A program made the position numbers and the translations under genes. Shown here one piece after another: positions 21,845-52,183 of a stretch of 64,000 nucleotides of DNA; positions within the stretch are counted from its first letter, which is position 1; every line of letters starts with the position of its first letter. Origin of the DNA: an uncultured Erysipelotrichaceae bacterium. Lineage in GTDB: Bacteria; Bacillota_I; Bacilli_A; Erysipelotrichales; Erysipelotrichaceae. The notes beneath the pieces are model-generated. The model ran no database searches and had not been told where the DNA came from. It worked only from the letters and a program-made list of their open reading frames with translations. Where the stretch lies: positions 14,231 through 78,230 of the forward strand of contig CACYXJ010000002.1 in NCBI GenBank assembly GCA_902778375.1. Direction: 5' to 3'.

Positions 21845-21855
21845 GGTGAATCAGA

Positions 21856-26172: not shown

Positions 26173-26206
26173 AAACCAGTCGGTGCAGAATTGCACTGAC
26201 TGGTTT
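26173..26206. terminator. Bidirectional terminator between the defence island and the polysaccharide locus
   Basis: AAACCAGTCGGTGCA-gaat-TGCACTGACTGGTTT between convergent genes. Confidence 0.75.
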
Positions 26207-28117: not shown

Positions 28118-28209
28118 ATATCTGATTCACTCCGATTCAATTTTAACATTGAATAGTATAAAGAATAGCATCCGCAGGGAAAACGGAGGCTGTTATTACT
28201 ATGTCTTTC

Positions 28210-29256: not shown

Positions 29257-29261
29257 TATTA

Positions 29262-30097: not shown

Positions 30098-32134
30098 ATG
30101 CTGCAAATCAGAGATAAAAAAGAAGATGTATACAGAAAGCACAAAACAGCATTCGCATGGCGTATTTTGTACTTCAGTGTCTGTTTCTTTTTTTTGTTTA
30201 CCGTTGAAGCAAACGCTTATATTGATCCGTCTGTCATGACCTATGCCATCCAGGCGATTGCCGGCATTGCGATTGCACTGGGTACATTTTTCAATATCTA
30301 CTGGCGCAGACTCTGGAAAAGAATAGGCTGGAACGGATTGTTTTCAACTAAATATGAAAAAACAGAATCCGATGAACTGTACTTTGATGACCCGGTGTCC
30401 CGGCAGCGAATCCAGCCGGAATACAAACCAGGAAATGACGTACAGGTTCAGAAGGAAAAAGAGCCGTTCCTTCGGAAACTGTGGAACGAGTACAAGTATG
30501 CGCTGATTCTTGCGGCGTGCGGAAGCTTCCTCATCATGATCTTCAGCCCGCTTGATCTGTATTTCAATAATATGAAGGACTTCTGGTTTGATTTTGGAAT
30601 TGTCTTCCCGATTCTGTTCAAATCATTTATAAAATGTTTCCTGACATTATCAGCGCTTTTCCTGGTATGCCTACTGCTGTTTGATGAACTGTATCATGTG
30701 GTCTATATCGGCGCTTTTGCGGCTTTTGTCTGCGCGTATATACAAGGAAACTTTCTGGCCGGAAAACTGCCGTCACTGGATGGTTCGGCGATCGACTGGT
30801 CACTTTATCACATACAGATGCTTCAGTCCAGATATCTGTGGAGCCTTTTGCCACTGGCTGTTTTATTGATTGCCCGGTTTGTCAGAATGAAGGGCTTTTA
30901 TAAGATTACAAAGTACGTGAATCTTCTGATTACGGCAATGCTTGCTGTATCCCTCCTGACAGTCGGAATCAGGAACAAAGGATTTTCGGACAAGAACTAC
31001 CGCATTGCCACATCCGATCATCTATTCGAAATGTCAGAGAAGCAGAATTTCATTATTCTGATGGTCGACGCTCTGGATGCCCGGATTTTTGGGCAGATCA
31101 TGCAGGAAAACCCTGAATACGCGGAATACTTTGAAGACTTTACATTTTTCCCGGATACTGTCGGAGCCTATACTTTTACGAGTTATGCGATGCCGCAGGT
31201 TCTGACAGGAGAATGGATGGAAAACCAGACGGATTACCAGACCTATTTTTCCGAGGCGATGGACAATTCTCCGTTGTTTGCGGATCTGAAGGAGAAGGAT
31301 TACCGGATGGGTATGTATGAAACAAACCTGTATTATGACAGCGATAATATCTATCAGTTTGAAAACATCCATGACGCAGAAGTCGACTTTAAATCAAGAG
31401 ATGAATTCATGGAGACAGAAAAAGAACTGTTTATATTCAAATACGCACCGTATCAGCTGAAAAGAGATCATGTTCCGGATATGCTCACTTTTTACCGCAC
31501 TCAGCAGATCAACGGTGATATGGACATATTCTCGGACAACAACGAGAACTTTTATAATAAGATTCACTCCGAGCCGATTGTCATGACGCAGGACAAATGT
31601 TTCAAATTCATCCATATCGAAGGTGCTCATGTGCCGTTCCGCTATAACAAGGATGTGGAGCGGATCGATACAGAAGACGGTTCTTATGAACAGAACGTAC
31701 TATGCAGCATCACGATCATGAATGCGTATCTGAGCGCTCTGAAAGAAGCAGGTGCTTATGACAATACGGCAATTATCATAATGGGAGACCATGGATTCAA
31801 TTATGACAATGATGAATACTGGGGTCGCTGGAATCCCGCACTTCTGGTCAAAGGCATTGACGAGCATCATGAGTATACTGAATCACTGGCACCGCTTTCC
31901 TTTGATGATCTGCAGGAAGCATACAGAAGACTGGAAGAAGGACAGCCAGCAGAGGCGTGTTTCGATGCTGAAGAAGGCGATATGAGAGAACGCCGGTATA
32001 TGCATTTTATCCGGGAAGCAAAAATCACCGAATACATACAGACCGGTTATGCGGCGGATGAAGAAACACTTGTTCCCACAGGAAGGGTTTTTGAAAGAGC
32101 CGTCGATTATCTGGCAGAATTCCATATCAACTGA
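30098..32134 (+). CDS. LtaS/EptA-like membrane alkaline-phosphatase-superfamily transferase, paralogue 1 (YIDPS module)
   Basis: Signal-like N-terminus, YIDPS-TM, ~5 TMs, then 'VDALD', 'FTSYAMPQVLTG', 'HIEGAHVPF', 'MGDHG'. Confidence 0.75.
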   Translation: MLQIRDKKEDVYRKHKTAFAWRILYFSVCFFFLFTVEANAYIDPSVMTYAIQAIAGIAIALGTFFNIYWRRLWKRIGWNGLFSTKYEKTESDELYFDDPVSRQRIQPEYKPGNDVQVQKEKEPFLRKLWNEYKYALILAACGSFLIMIFSPLDLYFNNMKDFWFDFGIVFPILFKSFIKCFLTLSALFLVCLLLFDELYHVVYIGAFAAFVCAYIQGNFLAGKLPSLDGSAIDWSLYHIQMLQSRYLWSLLPLAVLLIARFVRMKGFYKITKYVNLLITAMLAVSLLTVGIRNKGFSDKNYRIATSDHLFEMSEKQNFIILMVDALDARIFGQIMQENPEYAEYFEDFTFFPDTVGAYTFTSYAMPQVLTGEWMENQTDYQTYFSEAMDNSPLFADLKEKDYRMGMYETNLYYDSDNIYQFENIHDAEVDFKSRDEFMETEKELFIFKYAPYQLKRDHVPDMLTFYRTQQINGDMDIFSDNNENFYNKIHSEPIVMTQDKCFKFIHIEGAHVPFRYNKDVERIDTEDGSYEQNVLCSITIMNAYLSALKEAGAYDNTAIIIMGDHGFNYDNDEYWGRWNPALLVKGIDEHHEYTESLAPLSFDDLQEAYRRLEEGQPAEACFDAEEGDMRERRYMHFIREAKITEYIQTGYAADEETLVPTGRVFERAVDYLAEFHIN

Positions 32135-32194
32135 TATCCGGCAATATGGTCCGATAACCGGTTATCAAGATCGGAAGCAGAAAGGAGAACGCCG

Positions 32195-33091
32195 ATGAGC
32201 CTGACAAGGAAACAGTTTGATGTTCTGGAAGTATTGGCCACATCAGAAGAGACTCTGACGCAAAGAGAACTTGAGGCTGACACCGGACACAGTCTGGGAA
32301 CGGTAAACCGTATTCTCAAAGAATTGAATGAACTTGGTTATGCCGGAAACGGAAAGATCACCAATGCCGGCATGACAGCTTTGGAACCATATCGTGCGAA
32401 AAGAGCGGTTTTTATTGCGGCCGGATTTGGTTCCCGCCTTGTTCCGATTACTTTCAATACTCCCAAACCTCTGATTCGTGTTCAGGGTGTTCGCATTATT
32501 GACCGTCTGATTGATGCATGTCTGGAAGTTGATATTGATGATATTTACATTGTCCGCGGACATCTCGGAGAACAGTTCGACCAGCTTCTCTATAAATATC
32601 CGATGATCAAGTTTCTGGAAAATCCTATGTATAACGAGACAAACAATATCTCCAGTTCCTTGGTCGCGCGGTATCTGCTTTCCAACGCATATGTGTTCGA
32701 AGCAGATCTTCTGATATCCAATCCAAAGATTATCAGGAAGTATCATTACACTTCCGACTTCCTGGCAATCAAAAAGGAACGCAGCGACGACTGGTGCCTT
32801 CGGGTCAGAAACGGTGTGATCGTTGAAGAAATGGTCGGCGGAGAAGGCGACGATATCTGGCAGATGGTCGGTATATCTTACTGGAATGAAGCAGACGGCA
32901 ATATGCTTGCCCAGGATATCCAGGAGGTATATGCATCTCCCGGCGGAAAGGAACGTTATTGGGAACAGGTGCCGCTGGTATACAGAAAAGAGCGGTATGC
33001 TGTCAGGGTTCAGGAATGCTTTGAATCAGATGTCGTGGAAATCGACACCTTTACCGAACTGAAGGCAATTGATAAAACATACGACGTGTAA
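32195..33091 (+). CDS. Winged-helix + LicC-type cytidylyltransferase
   Basis: wHTH 'LTQRELEADTGHSLGTVNRILKEL'; NTase 'AAGFGSRL.P.T...PKPL', 'NNISS', 'EADL', 'DDW', 'GISYW', 'YWE', 'EIDT'. Confidence 0.85.
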   Translation: MSLTRKQFDVLEVLATSEETLTQRELEADTGHSLGTVNRILKELNELGYAGNGKITNAGMTALEPYRAKRAVFIAAGFGSRLVPITFNTPKPLIRVQGVRIIDRLIDACLEVDIDDIYIVRGHLGEQFDQLLYKYPMIKFLENPMYNETNNISSSLVARYLLSNAYVFEADLLISNPKIIRKYHYTSDFLAIKKERSDDWCLRVRNGVIVEEMVGGEGDDIWQMVGISYWNEADGNMLAQDIQEVYASPGGKERYWEQVPLVYRKERYAVRVQECFESDVVEIDTFTELKAIDKTYDV

Positions 33092-33176
33092 ACCTGGCAA
33101 TTTGTGACAGTTGACATCAGATCAAGGAACGATTGTTCAAAATTTCAAATATTTCTTCTAAAATGGAACATATATA

Positions 33177-33250
33177 TTGACGTTTATAGTTTGCGTTATT
33201 AAAATTATGTTCAGTTCTTGTTAAAAACACAGTTCAACGTGAACTGTGTT
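33177..33250 (+). promoter_or_regulatory. Sigma-A promoter of the ABC operon and downstream 11-3-11 palindrome
   Basis: TTGACG (33177-82), 17 bp, TAAAAT (33200-05); AACACAGTTCA-acg-TGAACTGTGTT (33226-50). Confidence 0.7.
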
Positions 33251-33340
33251 ATGTGTTTCTGAAAAGGATATGTATCAAAACGTGTTCAAAACAGGCGGTA
33301 AGCACAGGCAAGAAGGAAAAAAAGCAGGAGAATTAACGTT

Positions 33341-34384
33341 ATGAAAAAGAAAAACATGAGCATGGCTGCGTTTCTGTGCAGTGCGGCACTTGTACTGACA
33401 GGCTGCGGTTCTTCCAACAGTGCGTCCGGTACTGAACCGGCTTCCAGCGGCGGAAAAGACCGCGTAGTCATCTATACAGCTGCTGAAGATGAGCGGATTG
33501 AATATATTCAGCAGGAACTTGATAAGCAGTTCCCGGATACTGAAATCGTGATTCAGTCGCTTGGAACAGGCCAGCTTTTATCGAAACTGCAGGCAGAAGG
33601 TACAAACAGCGACTGTGATATCTTCTATGATCTGGAAGTTGTGAATGCGGAAATCATTCTGAACGCATCTCCGGATCTGTTCGCGGATCTTTCCGAATAT
33701 GACTTCTCTATTTACGATGCGTCTGTTACCGGCTATACTGATCGTCATCACCAGTATGCAGTCAACGGCAAGACAGCTGGTGCGTTCCTGGTCAATACCA
33801 AGGTTCTGGAAGAGAAAGGTCTTCCGGTTCCGGAAACATATGAAGACATGCTGAAGCCCGAATATGCCGGTCTGATCTCAATGCCGAGTCCCAAGTCTTC
33901 CGGAACGGGTTACAGCTACTACAACGGAATGGTTACTGTTCTTGGTGAAGAAGCAGGTATGAAGTACTTCGATGACCTGAACCCGAACATCAAGGAATAT
34001 ACAACTTCCGGTTCTGCTCCGGCAAAGGCAGCTGTCCGCGGTGACGTCGCAATTGCTTACGGTCTGCTCTGGCAGTGTGTCAACTATGCCAACGAGAATG
34101 AAGGGCTGAAAGTCATCATTCCTGAAAACGGGCTTGCCTTCGATCTGTTTACCATGGGCATGATTTCCGGTCATGAAACAAAAGGCAGCGTCAAGGAAGT
34201 GTTCACTTATCTGTATAACGAACTGAACAAGCCGCAGTGTGCGAAGTTCAATCCGGATAAGATCTACGTAGATATGCCGGCTGCTGAAATTGCAAACTAC
34301 CCGGAAAGCTATGCAGAGATTACCATGAACGGTCTGTTCGATTTCAACTATAAACAGAATCTGCTGGATCAGTGGAAATACTGA
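33341..34384 (+). CDS. ABC substrate-binding lipoprotein, Fe3+/sugar-phosphate/2-aminoethylphosphonate class
   Basis: Lipobox 'LTGC'; 'VIYTAAE', 'GLPVPETYEDMLKPEY.GLISMPSPKSSGTG', 'YTTSGSAP'. Confidence 0.82.
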   Translation: MKKKNMSMAAFLCSAALVLTGCGSSNSASGTEPASSGGKDRVVIYTAAEDERIEYIQQELDKQFPDTEIVIQSLGTGQLLSKLQAEGTNSDCDIFYDLEVVNAEIILNASPDLFADLSEYDFSIYDASVTGYTDRHHQYAVNGKTAGAFLVNTKVLEEKGLPVPETYEDMLKPEYAGLISMPSPKSSGTGYSYYNGMVTVLGEEAGMKYFDDLNPNIKEYTTSGSAPAKAAVRGDVAIAYGLLWQCVNYANENEGLKVIIPENGLAFDLFTMGMISGHETKGSVKEVFTYLYNELNKPQCAKFNPDKIYVDMPAAEIANYPESYAEITMNGLFDFNYKQNLLDQWKY

Positions 34385-34403
34385 TTTCTTAAGAAAGGCT
34401 CAG

Positions 34404-34431
34404 GAATAGCAGGGATGCCTGCTATTCTTTT
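34404..34431 (+). terminator. Hairpin/partial terminator between SBP and ATPase genes
   Basis: GAATAGCAGG-gatg-CCTGCTATTC followed by T run. Confidence 0.6.
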
Positions 34432-34470
34432 CTTAATTATGTCTTTATGAAATACCAGGAGGAAACAACA

Positions 34471-35229
34471 ATGGCAGAACCTATTATTCAGGCAGTCAAT
34501 ATAAGTAAAAAATTCAAGTCCAAAACGGTCCTGGAAGATATTTCCTTTGATATCATGCGGGGAGAATTCCTGTCCCTGCTGGGACCTTCAGGATGCGGCA
34601 AAACAACGATTCTGCGCATGCTGATCGGTATTGAACAGCCTACGGCTGGCAAGATATTGAAAGACGGCGTGGATATCACAAATGCTGCACCGAAAGACAG
34701 AAACATCGGTATCGTTTTCCAGAATTATTCTTTGTTCCCGAATATGGACGTTTACCATAATATTTCCTATGCACTCAGCGCAAAGAAAATGGGAAAGGAA
34801 GAGATTGACAAAAAGGTCAAGGAAATCATCGAAACTGTCGGACTTGAAGAACATATCTATAAAAAACCAAAACAGCTTTCCGGCGGCCAGCAGCAGAGAG
34901 TGGCTATCGCCAGAACGCTGGTTCTGAATCCGGACGTGATTCTGTTTGACGAGCCGATGTCAGCTCTTGATGCGGAAATCAAAGTCATTCTGCGTCAGCA
35001 GCTGAAAGAGATTCAGAAGAAGCTGAAAATAACGATGGTGTATGTCACTCATGACCAGGAAGAAGCGTTTGCGCTTTCCGACCGCATCATGGTACTGAAC
35101 GACATGCGGATCATACAGATGGATACACCGTATAACCTTTATCACAACCCGACCGATCCGTTCGTAAAGCGGTTTGTCGTCGATCATCTTGATTTGAAAG
35201 TCAAATCGATAGAGGACAGCATCAAATGA
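34471..35229 (+). CDS. ABC ATP-binding protein (PotA/FbpC class, no TOBE tail)
   Basis: 'GPSGCGKT', 'LSGGQQQR', 'LFDEP', 'VTHD'; GGAGG before ATG 34471. Confidence 0.9.
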   Translation: MAEPIIQAVNISKKFKSKTVLEDISFDIMRGEFLSLLGPSGCGKTTILRMLIGIEQPTAGKILKDGVDITNAAPKDRNIGIVFQNYSLFPNMDVYHNISYALSAKKMGKEEIDKKVKEIIETVGLEEHIYKKPKQLSGGQQQRVAIARTLVLNPDVILFDEPMSALDAEIKVILRQQLKEIQKKLKITMVYVTHDQEEAFALSDRIMVLNDMRIIQMDTPYNLYHNPTDPFVKRFVVDHLDLKVKSIEDSIK

Positions 35230-37796
35230 ACACGCAGATCAATCGTGCCGGCAGAATCATCAAGCATGAATACCTGAGGCTCATATCAATAGGATGTATT
35301 CTGCTGTTTGCCATTCTGCCGCTGCTGACACTGGCATTTCATGTGACCGGGGAGGACTGGAGTTATATTCTGCAGGATGCAACATTCTGGGCAGCTGTCA
35401 AAAATTCCCTGATCTATACGACTGCAGCAGCCGTGACCACCACGGTGCTTGCCCTGGTTGCGGCATATCTGCTGAATACATCAAGTCTGAAGAGGAAAAA
35501 CCTGTTTGTCATTCTTCTGACACTTGGCATGCTTGTACCGACGATTTCCGTCGGTCTTGGTCTGAGAGTGCTTTTCGGTACAAACGGGTTTATCGATCTG
35601 CTTTTCGGGGCGGAGATCGAAGTCAGAGGCTTCTCAGGGCTGATCATGGGTTCAGTAATGACCTCGTTCCCGGCAACGTTTTTGATTCTCTATGATGCCC
35701 TGAACTATGAAGACAAGGGACCTTATGATGCAGCAAGCATCATGGGCATCGGCCGGCTGAGCACTTTCTTCCGAATGACCGTTCCCTATCTCAAGATTGC
35801 CTTGATTTCAGCTTTCTTTGCCTGTTTTACGCTGATCTTTTCCGACTATGGAATGCCGATGGAAATTGCCGGTAAGGTAAGCACCTTACCGATGTATCTT
35901 TACGATCAGTTCATGAGTAGCTTTCAGTATGGAAGAGGTTCGATTGCCGGCTTTGTTCTGCTGGTGCCTTCCATTGTTTCCTTTGTATTCGATTTGATCT
36001 TCAAGGATCAGAGTGAAAGCGAAAAGCAGAAAAAACTGATCGAAGCGGAAAAGAGTTTCAATATCGGCACAGCCGTGGTCATTACGCTGCTGTGCCTGGT
36101 TCTTTTCCTGCCGCAGCTGGCATTTATCAGCCTGTCTCTGACAAGGGCATTCCCGAACGATCTGTCGTTCACCTTTGAACACATTGCAAATATCTTCTCG
36201 AACACACACGGAGTGGGCCTGACGGCGTATATCTGGAATTCCCTGTCGCTGTCACTGCTTACGGCACTGTTCGGTACCGCATTTGCCTATCTGCTCGGTT
36301 ATCTGAGTGTCAGAAAAAGCGGCAGAATGGCAAAGGTCGTCAACCTGCTGGCATTGAGTACGATTGCTATTCCCGGTCTGGTACTGGGTATCGGTTTTAT
36401 CTTCCTGTTCAAGGGGACAAACGGCTATTTCTATGGGACCGTTCTGATCCTGGTTGTCGTGAATATCTTCCATTTCCTCGGATCACCGTATCTTCTGGCA
36501 AAGAACTGTCTCAGCAAGATCAACAGTGATTATGAGATTATCGGTGAGACACTGGGGATTTCCAAGGGACAGATCATCAGAAATGTTCTGATTCCCAATT
36601 CAGTGTCCACTCTGGTTGAAATGTTCTCGTATTTCTTCCTCAACAGCATGATTACGATCTCGGCTGTTGCCTTCCTGTGCAGTTATGACAACCAGCCGCT
36701 GTCCATCCTCATCACAACATATGAGAAAAACAGCAACTACGAGATGCAGAGCGTTATTTCTCTGATCATTCTGTTCCTCAACGTTGTAGCCCGGACCGGA
36801 TTTACGGCAATTGCAAACACATTACGTAACGCTGAAGCTAAAGAAGTTGACGGCGGCATCGGTCTTGAACGCCATGAATTTGATTTCCTGACATATCTGG
36901 AGAAACAGGGCAGAGGGCAGTACAGTCTTAGAAAAATGGCTGATGATCTGACAATTTCCCTGAATAACGTACAGAAATATCTGAAAGAGCTGAACGACAG
37001 GAACTATATCAATATTTTTGCGGACGGCAGTATTGAAATCAGCGAAAAAGGACTTAAGGCGCTTGAACCGTACAGAGTCCGCAAGGCAATCATCCTGGCA
37101 GCCGGCTTCGGTTCCAGACTGGCTCCGGTCACGCTGGATACACCTAAGTCGCTGGTCAAGGTCAACGGAGAAAGAATCATCGATACATTACTTGATGCTC
37201 TGGTTGCCAAGGGTATTACCAACATCACAATTGTCAGAGGCTACAAAAAGGAACAGTTTGATGCCTTGCTGGAGAAGTATTCTACGATCCGGTTCATTGA
37301 CAATCCGGAATACAACATCACCAACAATATTTCTTCCGCTGTCTGTGCAGCTGACCTGATTGACCGTTGCTATATCTGCGAAGCTGATCTGTATATCACC
37401 AATCCGGATGTCATAAACAAATATGAATATCAGTCCAATTATCTCGGGGCAAAGGTATCCGAAACGGATGACTGGTGCTTCAAAAAGATTAACGGTGCGG
37501 TTGCGGATTATCAGATGGGCGGTACAGACTGCTATCAGGCATTCGGTATCTCATACTGGAACAGTGAGGATGCGGAAAAACTGAAAGCAGACCTCCGCAA
37601 GGTATACGCCAGCAGAGGCGGCAAGGAAAACCTCTGGGAAATCGTACCGCTGAGAATCATGAAAAAGAAGTATCATCTGGAAGTCCGCAAATGTCATAAG
37701 AGCGACATTATCGAAATCGACAACTTTATCGAACTGATAGCGGCAGACAGTTCATATGCCCATTATCCGGGATATGAAGGTTTCCGGGTAGAATGA
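35226..37796 (+). CDS. Fusion: double ABC permease + winged helix + LicC-type cytidylyltransferase
   Basis: Two EAA-like loops ('DAASIMG', 'IIGETLG'); then 'YSLRKMADDLTISLNNVQKYLKEL'; then 'AIILAAGFGSRL', 'NNISS', 'EADL', 'DDW', 'GISYW', 'EIDN'. Single uninterrupted ORF. Confidence 0.85.
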   Translation: MNTQINRAGRIIKHEYLRLISIGCILLFAILPLLTLAFHVTGEDWSYILQDATFWAAVKNSLIYTTAAAVTTTVLALVAAYLLNTSSLKRKNLFVILLTLGMLVPTISVGLGLRVLFGTNGFIDLLFGAEIEVRGFSGLIMGSVMTSFPATFLILYDALNYEDKGPYDAASIMGIGRLSTFFRMTVPYLKIALISAFFACFTLIFSDYGMPMEIAGKVSTLPMYLYDQFMSSFQYGRGSIAGFVLLVPSIVSFVFDLIFKDQSESEKQKKLIEAEKSFNIGTAVVITLLCLVLFLPQLAFISLSLTRAFPNDLSFTFEHIANIFSNTHGVGLTAYIWNSLSLSLLTALFGTAFAYLLGYLSVRKSGRMAKVVNLLALSTIAIPGLVLGIGFIFLFKGTNGYFYGTVLILVVVNIFHFLGSPYLLAKNCLSKINSDYEIIGETLGISKGQIIRNVLIPNSVSTLVEMFSYFFLNSMITISAVAFLCSYDNQPLSILITTYEKNSNYEMQSVISLIILFLNVVARTGFTAIANTLRNAEAKEVDGGIGLERHEFDFLTYLEKQGRGQYSLRKMADDLTISLNNVQKYLKELNDRNYINIFADGSIEISEKGLKALEPYRVRKAIILAAGFGSRLAPVTLDTPKSLVKVNGERIIDTLLDALVAKGITNITIVRGYKKEQFDALLEKYSTIRFIDNPEYNITNNISSAVCAADLIDRCYICEADLYITNPDVINKYEYQSNYLGAKVSETDDWCFKKINGAVADYQMGGTDCYQAFGISYWNSEDAEKLKADLRKVYASRGGKENLWEIVPLRIMKKKYHLEVRKCHKSDIIEIDNFIELIAADSSYAHYPGYEGFRVE

Positions 37797-37824
37797 CACG
37801 TCGGTTCTGTTACAAAGCATATTG

Positions 37825-37848
37825 GCCATGGTGAAAACCATGGCTTTT
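37825..37848 (+). terminator. Terminator after the ABC operon
   Basis: GCCATGGT-gaaa-ACCATGGC-TTTT. Confidence 0.7.
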
Positions 37849-37956
37849 CTGATGATTTAAGTATGTTAATAGTTTGGAAAAAAGAGTAAGTTTCGTTTAC
37901 CTTACTGCATACTGTGCGGTAAAATGAAGCGGATACAACAAAAGAAGGAGTTGAGT

Positions 37957-38658
37957 ATGACAAAAGCAATTTTAATGGCAGCAGGTCTGGGTACGAGAAT
38001 GAGACCGCTGACAGAAACGATGCCGAAGCCGATGATAGAGGTGAACGGTACACCGATGGTCGAAACTGTTGTAAAGGGACTTCTGGAAAACAATGTCGAC
38101 AAACTGTATGTTGTTGTCGGCTATCTGAAGGACAAATTCGCGCCTCTGGCGGAGAAGTATCCTGAGATTGTCCTTGTCGAAAATACCGAATATACCATCA
38201 AGAACAATATTTCTTCGATTCACGCAGCAGCAGATTACATGCATGGGGATGATTTCTTTATCTGTGAAGCAGATCTGTATGTATCGGATCCTTCTATCTT
38301 CGCAATTCCGCATAAACAGTCCTGCTATTATGGCGTCATGGTGAAAGGCCATTCCGATGACTGGGTATTTGATCAGGATGAAAACGGACGGATCATCCGT
38401 GTCGGTAAATGCGGAGATGATGTATATAACATGTGCGGTGTTTCCTGGTTCAACCAGAACGATATTGAGACTCTGCGTGACTGCATTCTGAAAGAATATG
38501 AAAATGAAGGACACGAGCAGCTTTTCTGGGATGATGTTGTTGACAGGAATCTGGATGTTCTGAATCTGACAGTATGTCCGATCGACAGAAAGCAGATCAT
38601 CGAACTGGATACTGCTGATGAACTGTATGAATTTGAAAAAACACTGAACAAGGATTAG
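37957..38658 (+). CDS. licC: LicC-type choline/ethanolamine-phosphate cytidylyltransferase
   Basis: 'KAILMAAGLGTRMRPLTETMPKP', 'GYLKDKF', 'GVSWF', 'FWDDVV', 'ELDT', closely resembling pneumococcal LicC; AAGGAG before ATG 37957. Substrate not proven. Confidence 0.75.
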   Translation: MTKAILMAAGLGTRMRPLTETMPKPMIEVNGTPMVETVVKGLLENNVDKLYVVVGYLKDKFAPLAEKYPEIVLVENTEYTIKNNISSIHAAADYMHGDDFFICEADLYVSDPSIFAIPHKQSCYYGVMVKGHSDDWVFDQDENGRIIRVGKCGDDVYNMCGVSWFNQNDIETLRDCILKEYENEGHEQLFWDDVVDRNLDVLNLTVCPIDRKQIIELDTADELYEFEKTLNKD

Positions 38659-38674
38659 ACAGAAGGCTGCTTAA

Positions 38675-40150
38675 ATGAGTACAAACAAAAATGACAAACA
38701 GCCGGGTCTGCAGAGACAGCTGAGTCCGATGCATGTATGGGCAATCGCCTTTGGATGCATTATTGGCTGGGGCTCCTTTGTAAACCCGGGCAAAAAGTTT
38801 CTTCCTAATTCCGGTGTAGCCGGAACTGCAATTGCCATGGTGCTTGGTGCACTGGTCATGATGGTCATTGCCTGCAGTTATGCCTACATGGTTCCGAAAT
38901 ATCCGAAAGCCGGCGGCGAGTTTACCTTTACCAAGGCCTGCTTCGGCAAACGGGCGGCATATGTCTGCGGCTGGTTCCTGGTTGCGGCATATCTGACCAA
39001 TGTTCCGATGAATTCCACCGCAATCGGACTGATCGTGGACGGTCTGGACGGAGCTGCGGATATTCTGAAATTCGGATTTCATTATACGATTGCCGGCTTT
39101 GACGTCTATATGGGAGAGATGCTGTTCGCAATGTCGATTCTGGTGTTGTTTGGCTGGCTGAATATTGTCGGTGTCAAAAAGGCCGGCTTTGTTCAGACCG
39201 TATTGGCTGCATTGCTGGCATTATCAGTCGGCACGCTGACCATCGCAGCAATTATCAGTTCCAAGACTAGTACTGCCAACATGGCTCCGCTCTGGGGTTT
39301 TGACAAAGCATCCGCGATTGCGGCATACAAAGCCGGAACCTATACCGGAGTGGATGAATTTGCCAATACCAATATCATGTCGGCGATTCTGGCAACCTTT
39401 GCCATTGCACCATGGGCATATGTCGGCTTCGACACGATTCCCCAGGCAGCGGAAGAGTTCAAATTTTCCTATAAAAAAGTCAGCATGATCATGGTTGTTG
39501 CCATTGTCTTCGGCTGCTTTGTCTATACGGCAAACAATACGATTACTGCAGCTGCCCTGGAGAACTGGCCGGATCTGATCGTTGAATCGTCTTCCACTCC
39601 GTGGCTGCTTCTGGCTGCGGCGGAAAGACTTCTGGGGACACCGGGCAAAATTCTTGTTGGCGTTGCTGTGTCGTGTGCAGTTCTGTCGGGTATTATGGGA
39701 TTCTATCTTGCGTCAAGCCGTCTGATGTATTCCATGAGCAGAGACGGATATCTTCCTGATTTCTTCGGAAAGATCGATGAAAAACACGGAACCCCGAAAA
39801 ATGCGATGCTGTTCTGTATCGCTGTATCCCTGACCGGACCGGTTCTCGGCCGTGAGGCACTGGGCTGGTTTGTGGATATGTCCGCGATCGGAGCATCGAT
39901 CGGCTTCATGTTCACCTGCATGTCGACAATCGTTACCATGAAGCGCAATCAGGACAGGAGTCCGTTCCTGAAATGGATGGCTGTCCTTGGTGCGACATTC
40001 TCACTGGCGTTTATTGTTCTGCAGCTGGTTCCGATTCCGGGACTGGAAGGGGTACATTTCGGCGGGGAATCCTATGTACTTCTGGTCGTCTGGATCGTAT
40101 TGGGAATTATGTTTTATATCTATCAGGTTGATGAAATCAACGCATCATAA
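38675..40150 (+). CDS. APC-family amino acid/amine permease
   Basis: 'AFGCIIGWG', 'PKAGGEF', 'WAYVGFD', 'ASSRLMYSM', ~12 TMs. Confidence 0.85.
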   Translation: MSTNKNDKQPGLQRQLSPMHVWAIAFGCIIGWGSFVNPGKKFLPNSGVAGTAIAMVLGALVMMVIACSYAYMVPKYPKAGGEFTFTKACFGKRAAYVCGWFLVAAYLTNVPMNSTAIGLIVDGLDGAADILKFGFHYTIAGFDVYMGEMLFAMSILVLFGWLNIVGVKKAGFVQTVLAALLALSVGTLTIAAIISSKTSTANMAPLWGFDKASAIAAYKAGTYTGVDEFANTNIMSAILATFAIAPWAYVGFDTIPQAAEEFKFSYKKVSMIMVVAIVFGCFVYTANNTITAAALENWPDLIVESSSTPWLLLAAAERLLGTPGKILVGVAVSCAVLSGIMGFYLASSRLMYSMSRDGYLPDFFGKIDEKHGTPKNAMLFCIAVSLTGPVLGREALGWFVDMSAIGASIGFMFTCMSTIVTMKRNQDRSPFLKWMAVLGATFSLAFIVLQLVPIPGLEGVHFGGESYVLLVVWIVLGIMFYIYQVDEINAS

Positions 40151-40160
40151 GCAGACAGTA

Positions 40161-40203
40161 AAGGCATGGATGCGCAGAAATGCGTAATAATCCATGCCTT
40201 TTT
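40161..40203 (+). terminator. Terminator after the APC permease
   Basis: AAGGCATGGAT...ATCCATGCCTT-TTT. Confidence 0.7.
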
Positions 40204-40260
40204 GAGCAATATCATATATTATATATAGGTTAGAGCATTAGTTGAAACAGGGGTATAGTT

Positions 40261-42375
40261 ATGGGCTTTTTGGGACAGATACTGGGACCGTTCATGAGTT
40301 TTTGTTACAATCTGACAAAAAACTACGGCCTGGCAATTATATTATTCACTCTGATCAGTAAGTTTATTCTGCTTCCGATTTCGGTGTGGGTGCAGAAAAA
40401 CTCGATTACCATGGTGAAGATCGAGCCGGAAGTCAACCGGATCAAGATCAAGCATTTTGGTGACAAGGATACAATTGCTGAAGAACAGCAGAAACTTTAT
40501 AAAAAGGAACATTATAATCCGCTGGCATCCCTCGTACCGCTGATCGCCCAGATTGTTTTGCTGATGGGTGTTGTCGAGGTTATTTATCATCCTCTGGATT
40601 ATGTCCTGCGGGTACCGCAGCCGGTTGCTCAGGACATGATGAAAGTGACTCTGGAGAATGTGGATTTCCTGGATGAAGAATCCAGTTCGATTCAGATCTA
40701 TACAGTAGAGGATATTCAGGCGGGAAATGAAGCCGATTATCTGCAACTGCAGGAAAAATACCCGGATACGGATCTGCAGCCTGTCATCGATTCCTGTAAG
40801 AACTTCAATATGAAATTCCTGGGAATCGATCTGGGATGGATCGCATCTGAGGTCGGCGGTATTGCCCTGATTGCTCCGCTGCTGGCGGGTCTTTCCTCCC
40901 TGCTGCTGGCAATTGCCCAGAACAAAATCAATCCGTTGCAGGCAGAGCAGTCCAACGCCAATAAATACGGCATGCTGGCATTTTCTGTTGCGCTGTCGTT
41001 ATATCTTGGCATGTTTGTTCCGGCCGGTGTCGCACTTTACTGGGTTGCCAGCAACCTGATGGCGATCATCCAGCAGTGGCTGATGAACAAAGCCATTAAT
41101 CCGGAGAAATATGTTGACTATGAAGCTTTGGAGTCGACACGCGAAGAACTGAAATCGCTGTCCGGCGGAGACAAGAAACTGAAATTCAACGATCCGCTGG
41201 CGAAACGTGCGAAAGCAGACTATAAACGTTTCTTCTCGATCGAAAACAAGCACCTTGTTTTCTATTCAGAAAGCAACGGTTTCTATAAATACTTCAAGGG
41301 TATGATCGAATATATCCTGAAGTATACGAATATTCCTGTTCATTACATCACCAGTGATCCGAACGACCAGATCTTTGAACTGGCAAAAGAGAATGATCAG
41401 ATCAAGCCGTACTTCATCGATCCAATCACACTGATCACATTGATGATGAAGATGGATGCAGATGTTGTCGTCATGACAATGCCTGACCTTGAAACGTATC
41501 AGATCAAACGTTCCTATGTCCGCAAGGATATTGAATATATCAATATTTCCCATGGAATGGGATCCCTGAATATGACTTTCCGTAAGGGTGCCCTGGATCA
41601 TTTCGACACAGTATACGCATCCGGAAAGCATCAGAAGGAAGAACTGGAGAAACAGGAAGAATTCTATCATCTCCCGAAGAAGAATATTTTCGAAGGCGGC
41701 TATCCGCTGCTCGATGACATGCGGGCCAGTTATGCTGCTTCAGAAAAGCCGGTTCATGAGAAAAAACAGATTCTGATTGCTCCGTCATGGCAAAAGGACA
41801 ATATCGTTGACAGCTGTCTGGACGAAATTCTCGAGCAGTTGAAAGGACATGGCTATCAGATCACGGTCCGTCCGCATCCGCAGCATGTACGCCATATGCC
41901 GGAAAAGATGGAAGCGCTCAAGCAGAAGTTTGCCAACGATCATGATATTGAGATCCAGACCGACTTCTCCAAAACCAGCAATGTCTTTGAGGCCGATCTG
42001 ATGATTACCGACTGGTCGGATATTTCCCACGAATTTGCCTATACGACATACAAACCGGTTCTCTTTATCGATACTCCGATGAAGGTCATGAATCCGGAAT
42101 ATCAGAATATCGATACAGTTCCGATCAACATCTGGGTAAGAGATGAAATCGGTATGGTTGTCGGACTGGATAAACTGGACGAAATACCTGAAAAGGTTGA
42201 ATACATGCTGTCGCATACAGAAGAGTATCATGAGCGCATTGATAAACTTGCGCACGAATATGTATATCACCTTGACGAAAGTGTGCCTTATGATGCCCGC
42301 TATATTATCGAGGCGGTATTCAGAAAAGTAGAAGAAAGAAACGGTGTAAAAGCAGAAAATGTACAGACTGCTTAA
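40261..42375 (+). CDS. Fusion: YidC/Oxa1 insertase + TagF-like (CDP-glycerol glycerophosphotransferase-type) domain
   Basis: YidC 'NYGLAIILFTLISKFILLP', 'EEQQKLYKKEHYNPL', 'GVALYWVASN'; TagF-like 'SHG', 'GYP.LD', 'APSW', 'RPHP', 'DLMITDWSDI'. Confidence 0.82.
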   Translation: MGFLGQILGPFMSFCYNLTKNYGLAIILFTLISKFILLPISVWVQKNSITMVKIEPEVNRIKIKHFGDKDTIAEEQQKLYKKEHYNPLASLVPLIAQIVLLMGVVEVIYHPLDYVLRVPQPVAQDMMKVTLENVDFLDEESSSIQIYTVEDIQAGNEADYLQLQEKYPDTDLQPVIDSCKNFNMKFLGIDLGWIASEVGGIALIAPLLAGLSSLLLAIAQNKINPLQAEQSNANKYGMLAFSVALSLYLGMFVPAGVALYWVASNLMAIIQQWLMNKAINPEKYVDYEALESTREELKSLSGGDKKLKFNDPLAKRAKADYKRFFSIENKHLVFYSESNGFYKYFKGMIEYILKYTNIPVHYITSDPNDQIFELAKENDQIKPYFIDPITLITLMMKMDADVVVMTMPDLETYQIKRSYVRKDIEYINISHGMGSLNMTFRKGALDHFDTVYASGKHQKEELEKQEEFYHLPKKNIFEGGYPLLDDMRASYAASEKPVHEKKQILIAPSWQKDNIVDSCLDEILEQLKGHGYQITVRPHPQHVRHMPEKMEALKQKFANDHDIEIQTDFSKTSNVFEADLMITDWSDISHEFAYTTYKPVLFIDTPMKVMNPEYQNIDTVPINIWVRDEIGMVVGLDKLDEIPEKVEYMLSHTEEYHERIDKLAHEYVYHLDESVPYDARYIIEAVFRKVEERNGVKAENVQTA

Positions 42376-44341: not shown

Positions 44342-44350
44342 AGAAATAAC

Positions 44351-47330: not shown

Positions 47331-47346
47331 AAGGTAAGTGATGGAG

Positions 47347-51274: not shown

Positions 51275-52183
51275 ATGAGTGAATATGATGAAATAACATT
51301 GAAAAGACTGCAGAGCATAGAACTGATGATCGTAAATGACCTGAAAAGGCTGTGTAAGAAACATGATCTTCAGTATTTTGGCTTTGCAGGAACCGGCATC
51401 GGAGTTCTGAGACACAAAGGTTTTATTCCCTGGGATGATGATATTGACATTGGGTTCCTCCGGCCGGATTATGAAAAATTTATCCAATATGCAAAGGAAG
51501 AACTGAACGACAAATACATTGTCATGAACGCTGAAACAGATCCGGATTATCCGCTTATGACGACCCGTCTTATGCTGAGAGGGACCAGATTCAGGGAAGA
51601 GGCTCTGAAAGATCTGAAATGTGAACTGGGTGTTTTCCTGGACCTGTATGCTTTTGATCAGGCCAGCGATGATGAAAAAGAGTTCAGAAAGCAATGCCGG
51701 GAAGCGTGGTGGTACAGTCATCTCATGATACTGAGAAGTATTCCTTTCCCGGTGCTTCCTGTGAAAGGGATAAAGGCAAAACTCGCTCATGCAGCTACTG
51801 CTGCAGTGTATGGCGGACTGACCCTTTTCCATGTATCCAAGACAAAGCTGGCACAGAAAGCCAAGGAGGCTGCCACAAGATTCAATAACGGACCAAAAAC
51901 AAAAAATGTTAATTTCTTTTTTGACACACTGCCTGATATGTGTGTGTACGGATACGATGAACTGTTTCCGCTGGTAGAACTTCCGTTTGAAAATACGACA
52001 TTATCATTCCCGAAAGAGCAGGACCGGTATCTGCGCTCCTTTTACGGCGATTACATGCAGCTGCCGCCGGCGGAGAACAGGAAAAACCACTATCCTCATG
52101 AACTGGATTTTGGTCCGTATAAAGATGTTCCGCTTGAAGAACTGAGAGATCCTGATAAGTACATCGATCCGGCAAAACTCTAA
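51275..52183 (+). CDS. LicD-family phosphotransferase
   Basis: 'GTGIGVLRHKGFIPWDDDIDIG', 'LDLY', 'YLRSFYGDYMQLPP'. Confidence 0.9.
   Translation: MSEYDEITLKRLQSIELMIVNDLKRLCKKHDLQYFGFAGTGIGVLRHKGFIPWDDDIDIGFLRPDYEKFIQYAKEELNDKYIVMNAETDPDYPLMTTRLMLRGTRFREEALKDLKCELGVFLDLYAFDQASDDEKEFRKQCREAWWYSHLMILRSIPFPVLPVKGIKAKLAHAATAAVYGGLTLFHVSKTKLAQKAKEAATRFNNGPKTKNVNFFFDTLPDMCVYGYDELFPLVELPFENTTLSFPKEQDRYLRSFYGDYMQLPPAENRKNHYPHELDFGPYKDVPLEELRDPDKYIDPAKL

Follow-up and report, generated by a model that had tools for sequence, protein, structure and literature searches.

A conserved permease-cytidylyltransferase fusion suggests a kinase-free import-and-activation cassette in gut and rumen Firmicutes

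We analysed a 64,000-nucleotide stretch of DNA from an uncultured Erysipelotrichaceae bacterium (the window) and found an operon in which genes for a binding-protein (SBP) lipoprotein and an ABC ATPase are followed by a single open reading frame joining an ABC permease, a winged helix and a LicC-type cytidylyltransferase. The explanation that we favour, with a probability only slightly above one half (roughly 55%), is that these genes form a conserved, self-contained and horizontally mobile cassette, which would import a head group and activate it for cell-surface decoration without a kinase.

Results

Three LicC-type cytidylyltransferase domains

A preliminary description of this DNA had proposed three LicC-type domains, and all three were recovered as full-length LicC-like cytidylyltransferase domains by their matches to the structure of LicC (PDB: 1JYK):

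32195..33091, + strand: wHTH-LicC protein of 298 aa, with a MarR-like winged helix (aa 1-~60) and a LicC/PntC-type cytidylyltransferase domain (aa ~68-298)
37074..37760 (start approximate), + strand: LicC/PntC-type cytidylyltransferase domain, C-terminal part of the fusion protein encoded at 35226-37796; 1JYK E=3.8e-25
37924..38658, + strand: stand-alone LicC-like cytidylyltransferase, which could also start at 37957; matches to 1JYK (E=7.7e-29) and 6PD1 (1.2e-18)

The first of these proteins aligned with residues 25-247 of the 1JYK chain, the full domain (E=6.8e-23), and for the three together homology to LicC extended over ~220-235 residues (E=7e-23 to 8e-29), with the LicC homologues showing 28-31% identity to Spn-LicC. 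The G-loop (GGRK), the PK motif and the metal ligands D107, E216 and D218 are intact in all three domains. Across more than 50 LicC-type domains the G-loop, the lysine and the same three acidic residues were conserved throughout, and the catalytic residues and pocket signature of the fused domain were kept in 26 of 28 fused homologues. Two of the three paralogues, the 32195 protein and the fused domain, carry an N-terminal winged helix; in the former, Pfam identified MarR_2 (35.5 bits, cut-off 27) together with NTP_transferase.

Pocket residues shared with PntC

The 'DDW' and '(Y/L/F)W(E/D)' motifs, which had been likened to the choline pocket of LicC, are real: DDW corresponds to LicC W136, and YWE, LWE and FWD to Y190-W191-D192. 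The full signatures read E105/DDW/YWE in the 32195 protein, E105/DDW/LWE in the fused domain and E105/DDW/FWD in the stand-alone enzyme. W136 and W191 of the LicC choline box are retained in all three domains. D105, however, is replaced by Glu in all three and D192 by Glu in two, while Y85, F88 and Y89 are not conserved, their places being taken by T/K, I and S. The combination of Asp at 105 and 192 with a composite aromatic box, formed by what we take to be the relevant LicC residues, was therefore not found in these domains. In the AEP-specific Tde-PntC, E104 and E196 are the two positions that differ from LicC (PMC6697681). Glu occupies both equivalent positions in the 32195 protein and the fused domain (E/E) and one of the two in the stand-alone enzyme (E/D).

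At these positions the pockets appear to resemble phosphonate-specific PntC more than LicC, and such PntC-like residues would favour 2-aminoethylphosphonate (AEP) or phosphoethanolamine over phosphocholine as the head group. Phosphocholine nevertheless keeps some probability, since the domains are nearer to Spn-LicC than to Tde-PntC in overall sequence and have kept W136 and W191. A cationic head group is suggested by the acidic and aromatic character of the pocket. The paralogues carry subfamily-specific pocket signatures, and it is plausible that different paralogues use different substrates.

An organophosph(on)ate-type importer fused to a cytidylyltransferase

The components of the importer, and the winged helix that follows the permease, are encoded as follows:

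33341..34384, + strand: SBP lipoprotein of the AfuA/P5PA/PhnS2 organophosphate clade (PDB and NCBIfam matches), with a signal sequence and the lipobox LTGC
34447..35229, + strand: PhnT2/PotA-like ABC ATPase, 260 aa (Pfam, NCBIfam)
35226..36830, + strand: PhnU2-like permease part of the fusion protein, with two BPD_transp_1 domains (Pfam) and about 11-12 TM helices (hydropathy)
36858..37061, + strand: winged helix within the fusion protein, which aligns with the homologous N-terminal region of the 32195 protein

The resemblance of the SBP to the AfuA/PhnS2 class, already noted from its motifs, was borne out: the closest solved structures were AfuA (8X1A, 3.6e-23; 4R72, 1.3e-21) and the PLP-binding P5PA (6WCE, 1.5e-19), and the best NCBIfam model was TIGR03261 PhnS2 (169 bits, under its cut-off of 392.75). 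T76 and T189 (in an SSGT motif) align with the phosphate-coordinating S37 and T150 of AfuA and are invariant in the family, whereas the sugar-coordinating H205, D206 and E229 of AfuA are replaced by W244, Q245 and D268 (PMC4546632). A structure prediction for the SBP reached a pLDDT of 39.7, at which the pocket is not readable. The ATPase, whose stop codon overlaps the start of the permease gene, aligns with the PhnT2 model (353 positions) from position 4 to 244 and has no C-terminal regulatory domain. The permease scored 297.8 bits against TIGR03262 PhnU2, compared with at most 75 bits for the next best transporter model. Although PhnS2, PhnT2 and PhnU2 are the best models for the three components, all of these scores lie below the equivalog cut-offs (169 vs 393, 332 vs 458 and 298 vs 593), so that AEP specificity cannot be transferred by homology.

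As the closest solved SBPs bind hexose or heptose phosphates or PLP, and most of the NTP_transferase superfamily are sugar-1-phosphate enzymes, we considered whether a sugar phosphate or other AfuA/P5PA-type ligand might be imported, with the LicC-like domains making an NDP-sugar or something similar. This seems very improbable. H205 and D206, essential for sugar binding in AfuA, are W and Q here, invariantly across the SBP family, and the ligands of AfuA are sugar-6-phosphates, which are not nucleotidyltransferase substrates. Furthermore, the LicC-type domains align over their full length with LicC only, sugar-1-phosphate enzymes matching just the N-terminal G-loop region, and their acidic and aromatic pocket residues suggest a cationic head group.

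The fusion itself, an 856-aa ORF (35226-37796) consisting of PhnU2-like permease, winged helix and LicC domain, is widespread. A search for homologues gave 675 matches at E<=1e-5; among the matches listed, all 120 were full length (843-875 aa, 79-100% identity), and the same architecture was also found at 53% and at 29% identity. For its winged-helix segment, HTH Pfam matches were obtained in two homologues (P0009 and P0295). The fusion was found in 34 loci from gut and rumen Firmicute MAGs, where the conserved block consists of SBP, ATPase and fusion only, usually accompanied by a second LicC paralogue.

No linked kinase, LicB transporter or PEP mutase

The preliminary description had reported no choline kinase domain and no LicB/EamA transporter in the window, as our searches confirmed. 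The Pfam models Choline_kinase, APH and EamA matched none of the 50 ORFs scanned, which comprised all 38 non-nested ORFs of >=150 aa in addition to some that were shorter and some that were nested; when the window was translated in six frames, an HMM derived from related LicC-kinase fusions had no match at E<=10; and regular expressions for the Ppm motif and a choline-kinase-like motif were negative in the window. The ~9 kb beyond its 3' end likewise held no kinase, EamA transporter or PEP mutase, so that LicC-type linkage to licA and licB was absent from the window and the ~9 kb downstream. Across the 34 fusion loci the kinase HMM had a match within 10 kb in one. In this exception (L029) a wHTH-LicC-choline kinase-wHTH-LicC protein, a choline/ethanolamine-kinase fusion, adjoins the cassette; a Pfam Choline_kinase domain was confirmed in a protein of wHTH-LicC-kinase-wHTH-LicC architecture (P0315). 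The Ppm motif EDKxxxxxNS had no credible match in the window or in 40 loci, its one hit being a chance match in a membrane ORF of L024. For a class-V aminotransferase at 47338 the best model was PhnW-AepZ (149 bits, cut-off 361), and a gene of this type was never linked to the cassette among related loci. Neither of the partners known for PntC, PEP mutase and AEP transaminase, was thus seen linked or fused.

These results bear on whether a classical Lic pathway operates here, in which the ABC and/or an APC permease would import free choline or ethanolamine, an unlinked LicA-type kinase would phosphorylate it and the LicC paralogues would act as usual. Such a pathway could draw on the kinase-containing wHTH-LicC protein of L029, with its domain identity confirmed by P0315, and on the APC permease found beside a LicC in the window, as the APC family includes ethanolamine permeases; in addition, the kinase searches cover the window, ~9 kb downstream and 10 kb around related loci, which leaves room for a kinase encoded elsewhere. 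We nonetheless judge it unlikely. The SBP, permease and ATPase are nearest to organophosph(on)ate systems rather than to choline binders of the ProX, ChoX or OpuB type; the SBP retains the phosphate-contact residues of AfuA; and 33 of the 34 loci have no kinase within 10 kb, even though LicA normally clusters or fuses with LicC. Finally, with an enzyme fused to the permease, the imported molecule is most sensibly that enzyme's own substrate.

Cell-wall polysaccharide neighbours

The genes around the cassette include the following:

30098..32134, + strand: Sulfatase-superfamily membrane protein, LtaS/GacH-like, with about 6 TM helices and a presumed external Sulfatase-superfamily domain
42359-44341 and 44351-46330: Sulfatase-superfamily paralogues of the 30098-32134 protein
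38675..40150, + strand: APC-superfamily permease (Pfam AA_permease_2, 1.3e-41), 17 nt 3' of the stand-alone LicC gene
40261..42375, + strand: YidC-like membrane domain fused to a TagF-type CDP-glycerol/ribitol phosphotransferase
51275..52183, + strand: LicD-family phosphotransferase (Pfam LicD, 5.3e-35)

The proposal that the three LicC paralogues match three transferases is not supported, because the proteins in question look like extracellular LtaS/GacH-type enzymes and are neighbours of the cassette in no more than about 3 of the 34 loci. All are above the Pfam Sulfatase cut-off, with the domain following about 6 predicted N-terminal TM helices; comparison of their sequences with those of solved structures gave no match. 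Extracellular lipid donors, rather than CDP donors, are the presumed substrates of LtaS/GacH-type enzymes (PMC9574508), and the 30098-32134 protein is probably not part of the cassette.

In this locus the LicD protein is the likeliest user of a CDP- or CMP-activated head group, with the YidC-TagF protein as another candidate for using CDP donors. Five related loci have a LicD gene no further than 3.5 kb from the cassette. Flanking genes are mostly concerned with cell-wall polysaccharide, with enrichment for LicD, flippases, TagF, RmlD and LytR-CpsA-Psr, and no transferase was consistently linked to the cassette among the loci compared. Of 29 informative loci, 21 have a LicC paralogue next to the cassette, which is of the winged-helix type in 17; in four (L023-L025, L030) a stand-alone LicC takes its place. 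The APC permease, which scored 66 bits against the ethanolamine permease model TIGR00908, has homologues between the wHTH-LicC and SBP genes in three loci (L004, L006 and L009). The preliminary description had missed or understated this permease and the LicD gene, as well as the permease fusion, the two N-terminal winged helices and the altered pocket residues.

The hosts of the cassette are ruminant-gut bacteria, and metatranscriptome contigs from bovine samples cover parts of the operon (98-100% identity over 178-257 nt). AEP has been reported from rumen bacteria as well as from ciliates (PMC4659874).

Candidate operators flanking a promoter

Upstream of the SBP gene, and within and after the operon, we identified the following elements:

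33135..33169, + strand: operator-like inverted repeat O1, GTTCA-N25-GGAAC, with one mismatch, ending 7 nt 5' of the -35 hexamer
33177..33205, + strand: near-consensus sigma-70-type promoter-like site, TTGACG-N17-TAAAAT
33209..33244, + strand: operator-like inverted repeat O2, GTTCA-N26-TGAAC, exact, beginning 3 nt past the -10 hexamer
34402..34429, + strand: stem-loop 3' of the SBP gene, with a stem of 12 bp (pattern match only)
37824..37845, + strand: terminator-like stem-loop closing the ABC operon (pattern match only)

Most related loci have an equivalent promoter (TTGACA-N17-TATAAT), and the position of O1 is conserved across loci. Exact operator matches numbered 43 in 40 loci, compared with 7.2±2.1 in shuffles; about 33 of the 43 are intergenic and next to cassette genes. 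They sit at SBP and wHTH-LicC promoters, also where the SBP is only 46-63% identical. The stem-loop after the SBP gene is possibly an intra-operon attenuator or RNA stabiliser. Candidate operators on both sides of the promoter suggest autoregulation of the cassette by its own winged-helix domains. The 32195 protein may be a MarR-like transcription factor, given its Pfam score and these candidate operators, but for MarR proteins a spacing of 25-26 nt would be unusual.

One could instead regard the winged-helix-LicC modules as mainly sensors or regulators, with the LicC fold as the effector-binding domain of a transcription factor and the ABC system obtaining P or N from scavenged organophosphonates or organophosphates instead of serving surface decoration. 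The conserved operators around the promoter, the MarR-type domain above the Pfam cut-off and the very diverse contexts of the cassette, with many loci lacking an adjacent transferase, would all suit such a role, which we consider doubtful on the following grounds. Every catalytic residue has been retained across more than 50 domains, as would not be expected of a pure sensor; no phnW, phnX, phnA or phosphatase gene was found linked to the cassette among its neighbours, which are enriched instead for cell-wall polysaccharide genes including LicD; and a bifunctional "trigger enzyme" accounts for both the operators and the catalytic residues.

Discussion

The suggestion that an ABC system imports an already phosphorylated or phosphonate head group, making LicA dispensable, gains from the permease-LicC fusion, its presence in 34 loci of which one has a kinase within 10 kb, the absence of a Ppm motif nearby, and an SBP in which the phosphate contacts of AfuA are kept and its sugar contacts replaced; the identity of the substrate is something we infer. 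On our preferred reading, the SBP lipoprotein would capture a small aminoalkyl-phosphonate or -phosphate, the likeliest being AEP and/or phosphoethanolamine, with phosphocholine less likely. A PhnT2/PhnU2-like ABC importer would carry it across the membrane, and at the transporter exit the LicC/PntC-type domain on the cytoplasmic C-terminus of the permease would join it with CTP to give a CMP- or CDP-activated head group. LicA kinase, LicB transporter and PEP mutase would all be unnecessary. The second, soluble paralogue (winged-helix-LicC, or plain LicC with an APC permease) may provide parallel or complementary activation, and the activated donor would be used by LicD-type, possibly TagF-type, transferases of the surrounding cell-wall polysaccharide locus. 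The winged-helix domains would be the likely binders of the two GTTCA-N25/26-TGAAC operators flanking the strong promoter, probably as autoregulators.

More speculatively, and with little probability of being right in full, the 856-aa protein may be permease, cytidylyltransferase and membrane-tethered transcription factor in one. Its winged helix, by itself or in a heterodimer formed with free wHTH-LicC, would bind the half-sites, transport flux or substrate/CTP occupancy would set operon transcription, and Ppm-less rumen bacteria would salvage protozoan AEP for wall decoration.

How does the cassette relate to known systems? The putative 2-AEP transporter PhnS2T2U2 (TIGR03261/03265/03262) and AfuABC/P5PA supply the best NCBIfam models and the closest SBP structures, and the phosphate-contact Ser/Thr residues are kept. 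Scores here fall below the cut-offs, however, the phnW/phnX catabolic genes are missing from the surroundings, the ATPase is without the C-terminal regulatory domain, the permease bears a wHTH-cytidylyltransferase extension and the sugar-binding residues of AfuA are replaced.

NadR combines a wHTH with an NMN adenylyltransferase and works with the PnuC transporter, and BirA is likewise a bifunctional enzyme-repressor. The resemblance is one of logic only, with no sequence relationship: a winged helix is joined to a nucleotidyltransferase that would act on an imported metabolite, and its likely targets are the uptake operon's own operators. Unlike NadR and BirA, one copy here is tethered to a transporter, and an unusually long spacer of 25-26 nt separates the half-sites.

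We infer from these comparisons a variant of the Lic/Pnt pathway. In the Lic pathway of Streptococcus pneumoniae and Haemophilus influenzae, the LicB importer, LicA kinase, LicC and LicD transferases act together; the present locus shares LicC homologues, a LicD gene, a cell-wall polysaccharide setting and the logic of import, cytidylyl activation and transfer. In contrast, it has neither LicA nor LicB/EamA, import would depend on an SBP and an ABC system from the organophosph(on)ate clade, one of the LicC domains is fused to a permease, two carry a winged helix and the choline pocket is altered. With the Pnt pathway (PntC Tde1415 and Ari1348; Rice et al. 2019, PMC6697681) it has in common a LicC-family enzyme, a presumed substrate for which no kinase is needed, linked LicD-like transferases, surface decoration as the presumed outcome and, as in Tde-PntC, Glu at both LicC positions 105 and 192. 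Known PntCs have PEP mutase or the AEP transaminase as their linked or fused partner, a route of de novo synthesis, whereas here no Ppm lies nearby and the partner is an importer. If this importer-partnered reading is true, the cassette would represent a salvage version of the Pnt pathway.

Gene organisation of the window

The window sequence derives from a bovine gut metagenome, and Pfam and NCBIfam scans revealed a same-strand gene run (30098-46330) lying within a large cell-wall polysaccharide region.

Genes of the run (Pfam/NCBIfam) and of its surroundings, in window positions
26205-29984, minus strand: TarI-like and SDR genes, a Bac_transf gene and a glycosyltransferase
30098-32134: Sulfatase-superfamily membrane protein
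32195-33091: winged helix and LicC-like nucleotidyltransferase, 298 aa
33341-34384: solute-binding lipoprotein (SBP)
34447-35229: ABC ATPase
35226-37796: 856-aa protein with two BPD_transp_1 permease domains, a winged-helix segment and a LicC-like domain
37924-38658: stand-alone LicC-like protein
38675-40150: APC-family permease
40261-42375, plus strand: YidC-TagF fusion
42359-44341 and 44351-46330: two further Sulfatase-superfamily membrane proteins
51275-52183: LicD, among downstream wall-polymer genes

The downstream genes also include rmlD, a class-V aminotransferase, a TagD-GFO fusion, rmlC, GT2s, a flippase, a TagGH-like ABC-2 exporter pair (56543-58467) and DUF2142 membrane proteins, of which one is encoded at 60897-62660 and three more past the 3' end of the window on the same contig (locus L041); rmlA and rmlB lie just outside the window. 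Taken together, the exporter pair, the four DUF2142 proteins, the GT2s and rmlA/rmlB make the wider region look like a locus for an ABC-exporter-dependent, rhamnose-containing wall polysaccharide. The class-V aminotransferase scored as nearly identical to PDB 3F0H (E=5e-170), with PhnW-AepZ as its best NCBIfam model at a score far under the cut-off; its gene overlaps that of the TagD-like cytidylyltransferase fused to a GFO/IDH/MocA oxidoreductase (47338-49724, plus strand). Together the two might yield a CDP-glycerol derivative that is both oxidised and aminated, for example CDP-serinol; they were rejected as part of the system described below, as they do not co-occur with it in other loci. 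Just upstream of the polysaccharide region (18657-24180, plus strand) lies a complete three-gene SngABC defence system in the naming of PADLOC-DB, which we take to be the system known as Shango; it comprises SngA (TerB_N/TerB_C, 3e-55), SngB (BrxC/D-like ATPase, 1e-186) and SngC (DEAD helicase, 3e-277). A search of positions 26000-53000 for riboswitches and other RNA elements returned only two sub-threshold chance matches.

Three LicC-type domains with distinct pocket signatures

The preliminary description had recognised three LicC-type domains with "DDW" and "(Y/L/F)W(E/D)" residues, and this was borne out by both PDB searches and alignment. The top PDB match of all three was Spn-LicC (1JYK), aligned over essentially the whole domain (E=6.8e-23 for the 32195 protein, 3.8e-25 for the fused domain and 7.7e-29 for the 37924 protein), followed each time by the PntC domain of Treponema denticola Tde1415 (6PD1), while matches to sugar-1-phosphate enzymes were limited to the N-terminal G-loop. 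On alignment to LicC by MAFFT, "DDW" corresponds to N134-E135-W136 and "(Y/L/F)W(E/D)" to Y190-W191-D192, and the G-loop, PK motif, D107, E216 and D218 are kept in all three domains; LicC Y85, F88 and Y89 are conserved in none of them. What had been under-used was that the second domain forms the cytoplasmic C-terminus of an ABC permease. When 60 LicC domains from the window and the fetched genome loci were surveyed, pocket signatures differed by subfamily.

Pocket signatures (positions 105; 134-136; 190-192)
Permease-fused type: E; DDW; LWE (26/28)
Free winged-helix type: E; DDW; YWE
Plain 37924 type: E; DDW; (Y/F)WD
Kinase-fused N-terminal domains: S/C/P; no W136; (F/Y)WE
Spn-LicC: D; NEW; YWD

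A conserved permease-LicC cassette

The fusion is not an assembly artefact, as shown by full-length homologues, its presence in 34 genome loci and the recurrence of the permease, winged-helix and NTP_transferase architecture at 53% and 29% identity in a library clustered at 50% identity. There were 675 homologues at E<=1e-5, and the 120 matches listed were all full length (843-875 aa, 79-100% identity), the closest named ones among them coming from Lachnospiraceae metagenome-assembled genomes (MAGs); the few homologues with a source name are annotated merely as "ABC transporter permease subunit". The 34 loci come chiefly from ruminant MAGs, labelled Lachnospiraceae, Oscillospiraceae, Erysipelotrichaceae/Solobacterium, Bacilli and "Mollicutes". 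Four PhnU2-like double permeases in the homologue library carry other C-terminal extensions (P0292, P0296, P0340 and P0389), one with a weak LicD-like segment (E=7e-5) and three with a fused SBP_bac_6 domain.

Across 40 fetched loci, SBP, ATPase and fusion were the sole conserved block. A second LicC paralogue adjoins it in 21 of the 29 loci with sufficient flank, being of the winged-helix type in 17 and of the plain 37924 type alone in four, with both types present in L008. Because cassette proteins share about 80% identity between MAGs placed in different families (Lachnospiraceae, Oscillospiraceae/Ruminococcaceae, Solobacterium/Erysipelotrichaceae and one 'Prevotella' bin) while the flanks of L001-L034 are unrelated to those of the window, the cassette behaves as a mobile module, and this sharing suggests horizontal transfer or, alternatively, some binning errors. 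Families recurring among 119 ORFs scanned within 3.5 kb of the cassette were Epimerase/RmlD, LicD (5), Polysacc_synt flippases (5), Glyphos_transf (3), AA_permease (3) and LytR_cpsA_psr (2). The cassette occurs abundantly in gut metagenomes, both from ruminants and from other hosts. Parts of the operon, among them the junction of ATPase and permease genes and the LicC-encoding portion of the fusion, are also covered by bovine metatranscriptome contigs (98-100% identity over 178-257 nt), for which DNA carry-over is possible and contig depth is a poor measure.

Absence of a linked kinase or PEP mutase

The absence of a choline kinase and of an EamA transporter from the window, also claimed at the outset, agreed with a Pfam scan in which 50 window ORFs, including all 38 non-nested ORFs of at least 150 aa, gave no match to Choline_kinase, APH or EamA. 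A kinase HMM built from the kinase domains of related winged-helix-LicC-kinase fusions in other loci gave no match when run against all six translated frames of the window, even with a threshold of E<=10; regular expressions for choline-kinase-like and PEP mutase (Ppm) motifs were likewise negative there, and no kinase was found in the ~9 kb past the 3' end. Neither a kinase nor a PEP mutase was among the 25 most frequent families of the 119 flanking ORFs.

The kinase HMM matched one of the 34 fusion loci, L029, in which an 895-aa winged-helix-LicC-kinase-winged-helix-LicC protein adjoins the cassette; Pfam confirmed the Choline_kinase domain within this architecture in the library homologue P0315. 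Such proteins measure ~850-895 aa, and those consisting of winged helix, LicC and choline/ethanolamine kinase ~600 aa.

Multi-domain kinase fusions
L029: 13499-16186, minus strand
L035: 11147-12982
L036: 2691-4472
L038: 1614-3449
P0315: library homologue

The N-terminal LicC domains of these proteins lack E105 and W136 and so form a pocket subfamily separate from that of the ABC-linked enzymes.

An SBP with a putative phosphate anchor

The SBP had been likened to the AfuA/AepX(PhnS2) class, and its best solved relatives fit this assignment: 8X1A, the hexose/heptose-phosphate binder AfuA (4R72-4R75) and the PLP binder P5PA (6WCE), with marginal matches at most to Fe3+-binding FbpA/HitA. The best NCBIfam models of the transporter parts were PhnS2, PhnT2 and PhnU2, all scoring under the equivalog cut-offs that define strict PhnS2T2U2 membership. 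In AfuA, phosphate is bound by Ser37 and Thr150, and the sugar by the essential ligands His205 and Asp206 and also by Glu229 (PMC4546632). In the PDB-search alignment, Ser37 and Thr150 correspond to T76 and T189 (SSGT motif) of the SBP, both invariant in the family, and the sugar ligands to W244, Q245 and D268, so the SBP probably retains a phosphate or phosphonate anchor alongside a different specificity pocket. The family profile matched the putative 2-aminoethylphosphonate (AEP)-binding PhnS (4R6Y) marginally (E=0.11) and thus lends no structural support to AEP specificity. Modelling the SBP with AlphaFold2 on 18 aligned close homologues gave an unusable structure (mean pLDDT 39.7). The ATPase matches positions 4-244 of the 353-position PhnT2 model, so the regulatory domain normally found at the C-terminus is missing; the stop codon of the ATPase gene overlaps the start of the permease gene.

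Substrate of the ABC-linked enzymes

The preliminary description had proposed import of a phospho- or phosphono-substrate independent of a kinase. Architecture and comparative genomics back this proposal and stop short of proof: the ABC system would import a ready-made phosph(on)o-head group that needs no kinase. As to its identity, AEP-specific Tde-PntC and phosphocholine-specific LicC owe their selectivity mainly to steric effects, since the smaller Tde-PntC pocket has E104 and E196 at the sites of the smaller LicC residues D105 and D192 (Rice et al., PMC6697681). Both glutamates are common to PntC and the two cassette enzymes (permease-fused and free winged-helix), a pattern that speaks for a small head group with a primary amine, for instance AEP or phosphoethanolamine. 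However, the window domains are more similar overall to LicC than to PntC and retain W136 and W191, and the LicC-like pocket of Ari-PntC is able to prefer AEP (PMC6697681), so residue logic alone cannot settle the substrate. As a rough estimate, we give AEP or phosphoethanolamine a probability of about 60%; phosphocholine seems less likely, and other compounds share what is left.

An APC permease is paired with LicC, again with no kinase, in the window, L004, L006 and L009, a pairing most easily understood if the permease, too, carries a substrate that requires no phosphorylation; AEP would fit, being a zwitterion that resembles an amino acid. Rumen ciliates, for which AEP serves as a marker, contain it in abundance, and it has been reported in rumen bacteria too (PMC4659874), an occurrence that the proposed ABC import and activation route, if right, could account for.

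A conserved promoter and candidate operators

Alignment of SBP-gene upstream sequences from 22 sources showed few elements conserved at >=80%, namely a near-consensus promoter (TTGACA-N17-TATAAT) and GTTCA/GAAC blocks. The promoter-anchored layout is fixed: GTTCA-N25-TGAAC, the -35 and -10 hexamers, then a second GTTCA-N25/26-TGAAC. The first pair ends 9-10 nt upstream of -35 in most loci and 7 nt in the window, and the second begins 2-3 nt after -10 in most loci.

Elements upstream of the window SBP gene
33135-33169: O1, first operator-like repeat, one mismatch
33177-33205: promoter, between O1 and O2
33209-33244: O2, second GTTCA/TGAAC pair

Exact GTTCA-N19-31-TGAAC occurred 43 times in 628 kb of loci versus 7.2±2.1 in shuffles, and about 33 of the 43 matches are intergenic beside cassette genes, nearly all with a 25-26-nt spacer. 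Sites lie directly upstream of SBP genes, even where the SBP is just 46-63% identical, and also upstream of winged-helix-LicC genes (L004, where the APC permease gene follows, L008 and L018) and of the L029 winged-helix-LicC-kinase gene; loci without the ABC cassette (L035-L039) gave no operator matches. A palindrome inside O2 (33226-33250; perfect 11-bp arms, AACACAGTTCA-ACG-TGAACTGTGTT) was rejected as a conserved operator, being locus-specific and absent from related loci, where the widely spaced GTTCA/TGAAC pairs are the conserved signal.

The winged helix encoded by the cassette itself is the obvious candidate to bind the operators. Its free and tethered forms have similar putative recognition helices (SLGTVNRILKEL and SLNNVQKYLKEL, MAFFT alignment with LicC), and the distance of ~30 bp between half-sites would fit DNA-binding domains that an enzyme dimer keeps apart. 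Since operators also occur in loci where the permease-tethered winged helix is the sole cassette-encoded one, a membrane-tethered regulator may exist among the cassette proteins. The conserved operator and promoter make this a directly testable regulatory hypothesis.

Possible users of the LicC products

It had further been suggested that the three LicC paralogues match three transferases, the Sulfatase-superfamily proteins. This pairing found no support, given their LtaS/GacH layout (about six N-terminal TM helices, then a catalytic domain) and their presence with the cassette in only ~3 of 34 loci (L008, L033 and the window). A PDB sequence search with a Sulfatase-family protein gave no match. 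GacH works outside the cell, where it decorates rhamnose polysaccharide with glycerol phosphate that most likely stems from phosphatidylglycerol (PMC9574508), and by analogy LtaS/GacH-type enzymes would not consume cytoplasmic CDP donors. The LicC products are more plausibly used by LicD at 51275, or possibly by the TagF-type domain at 40261; the cassette of L029 is directly adjoined by two LicD genes. The 40261 protein consists of an insertase domain of the YidC/Oxa1 type (aa 1-~280) followed by a CDP-glycerol/ribitol phosphotransferase domain of the TagF type (aa ~326-607), a fusion conserved at 95% identity in L008 and ~45% in L016, L033 and L037, usually beside Sulfatase-family membrane proteins.

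Comparison with known systems

Searches of the literature for a permease fused to LicC, for ABC import of phosphocholine or for salvage of AEP into glycans returned nothing relevant, and the literature searched yielded no comparable fusion of an enzyme to the membrane domain of an ABC importer. The window enzymes lack the defining choline pocket and the licA/licB linkage of strict LicC members, and the Ppm linkage of strict PntC members. We propose that the system works like a Lic/Pnt pathway in which the first steps would be replaced by direct import of a phosph(on)o-head group, ABC import of this ready-made compound being physically coupled to its cytidylyl activation. Known routes to Lic/Pnt-type surface decorations are choline import followed by a kinase (Lic) and de novo phosphonate synthesis (Ppm/Pnt). 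If the proposal is right, the cassette would represent a third bacterial route to such decorations, and its permease-enzyme fusion a clean example of metabolite channelling from a transporter.
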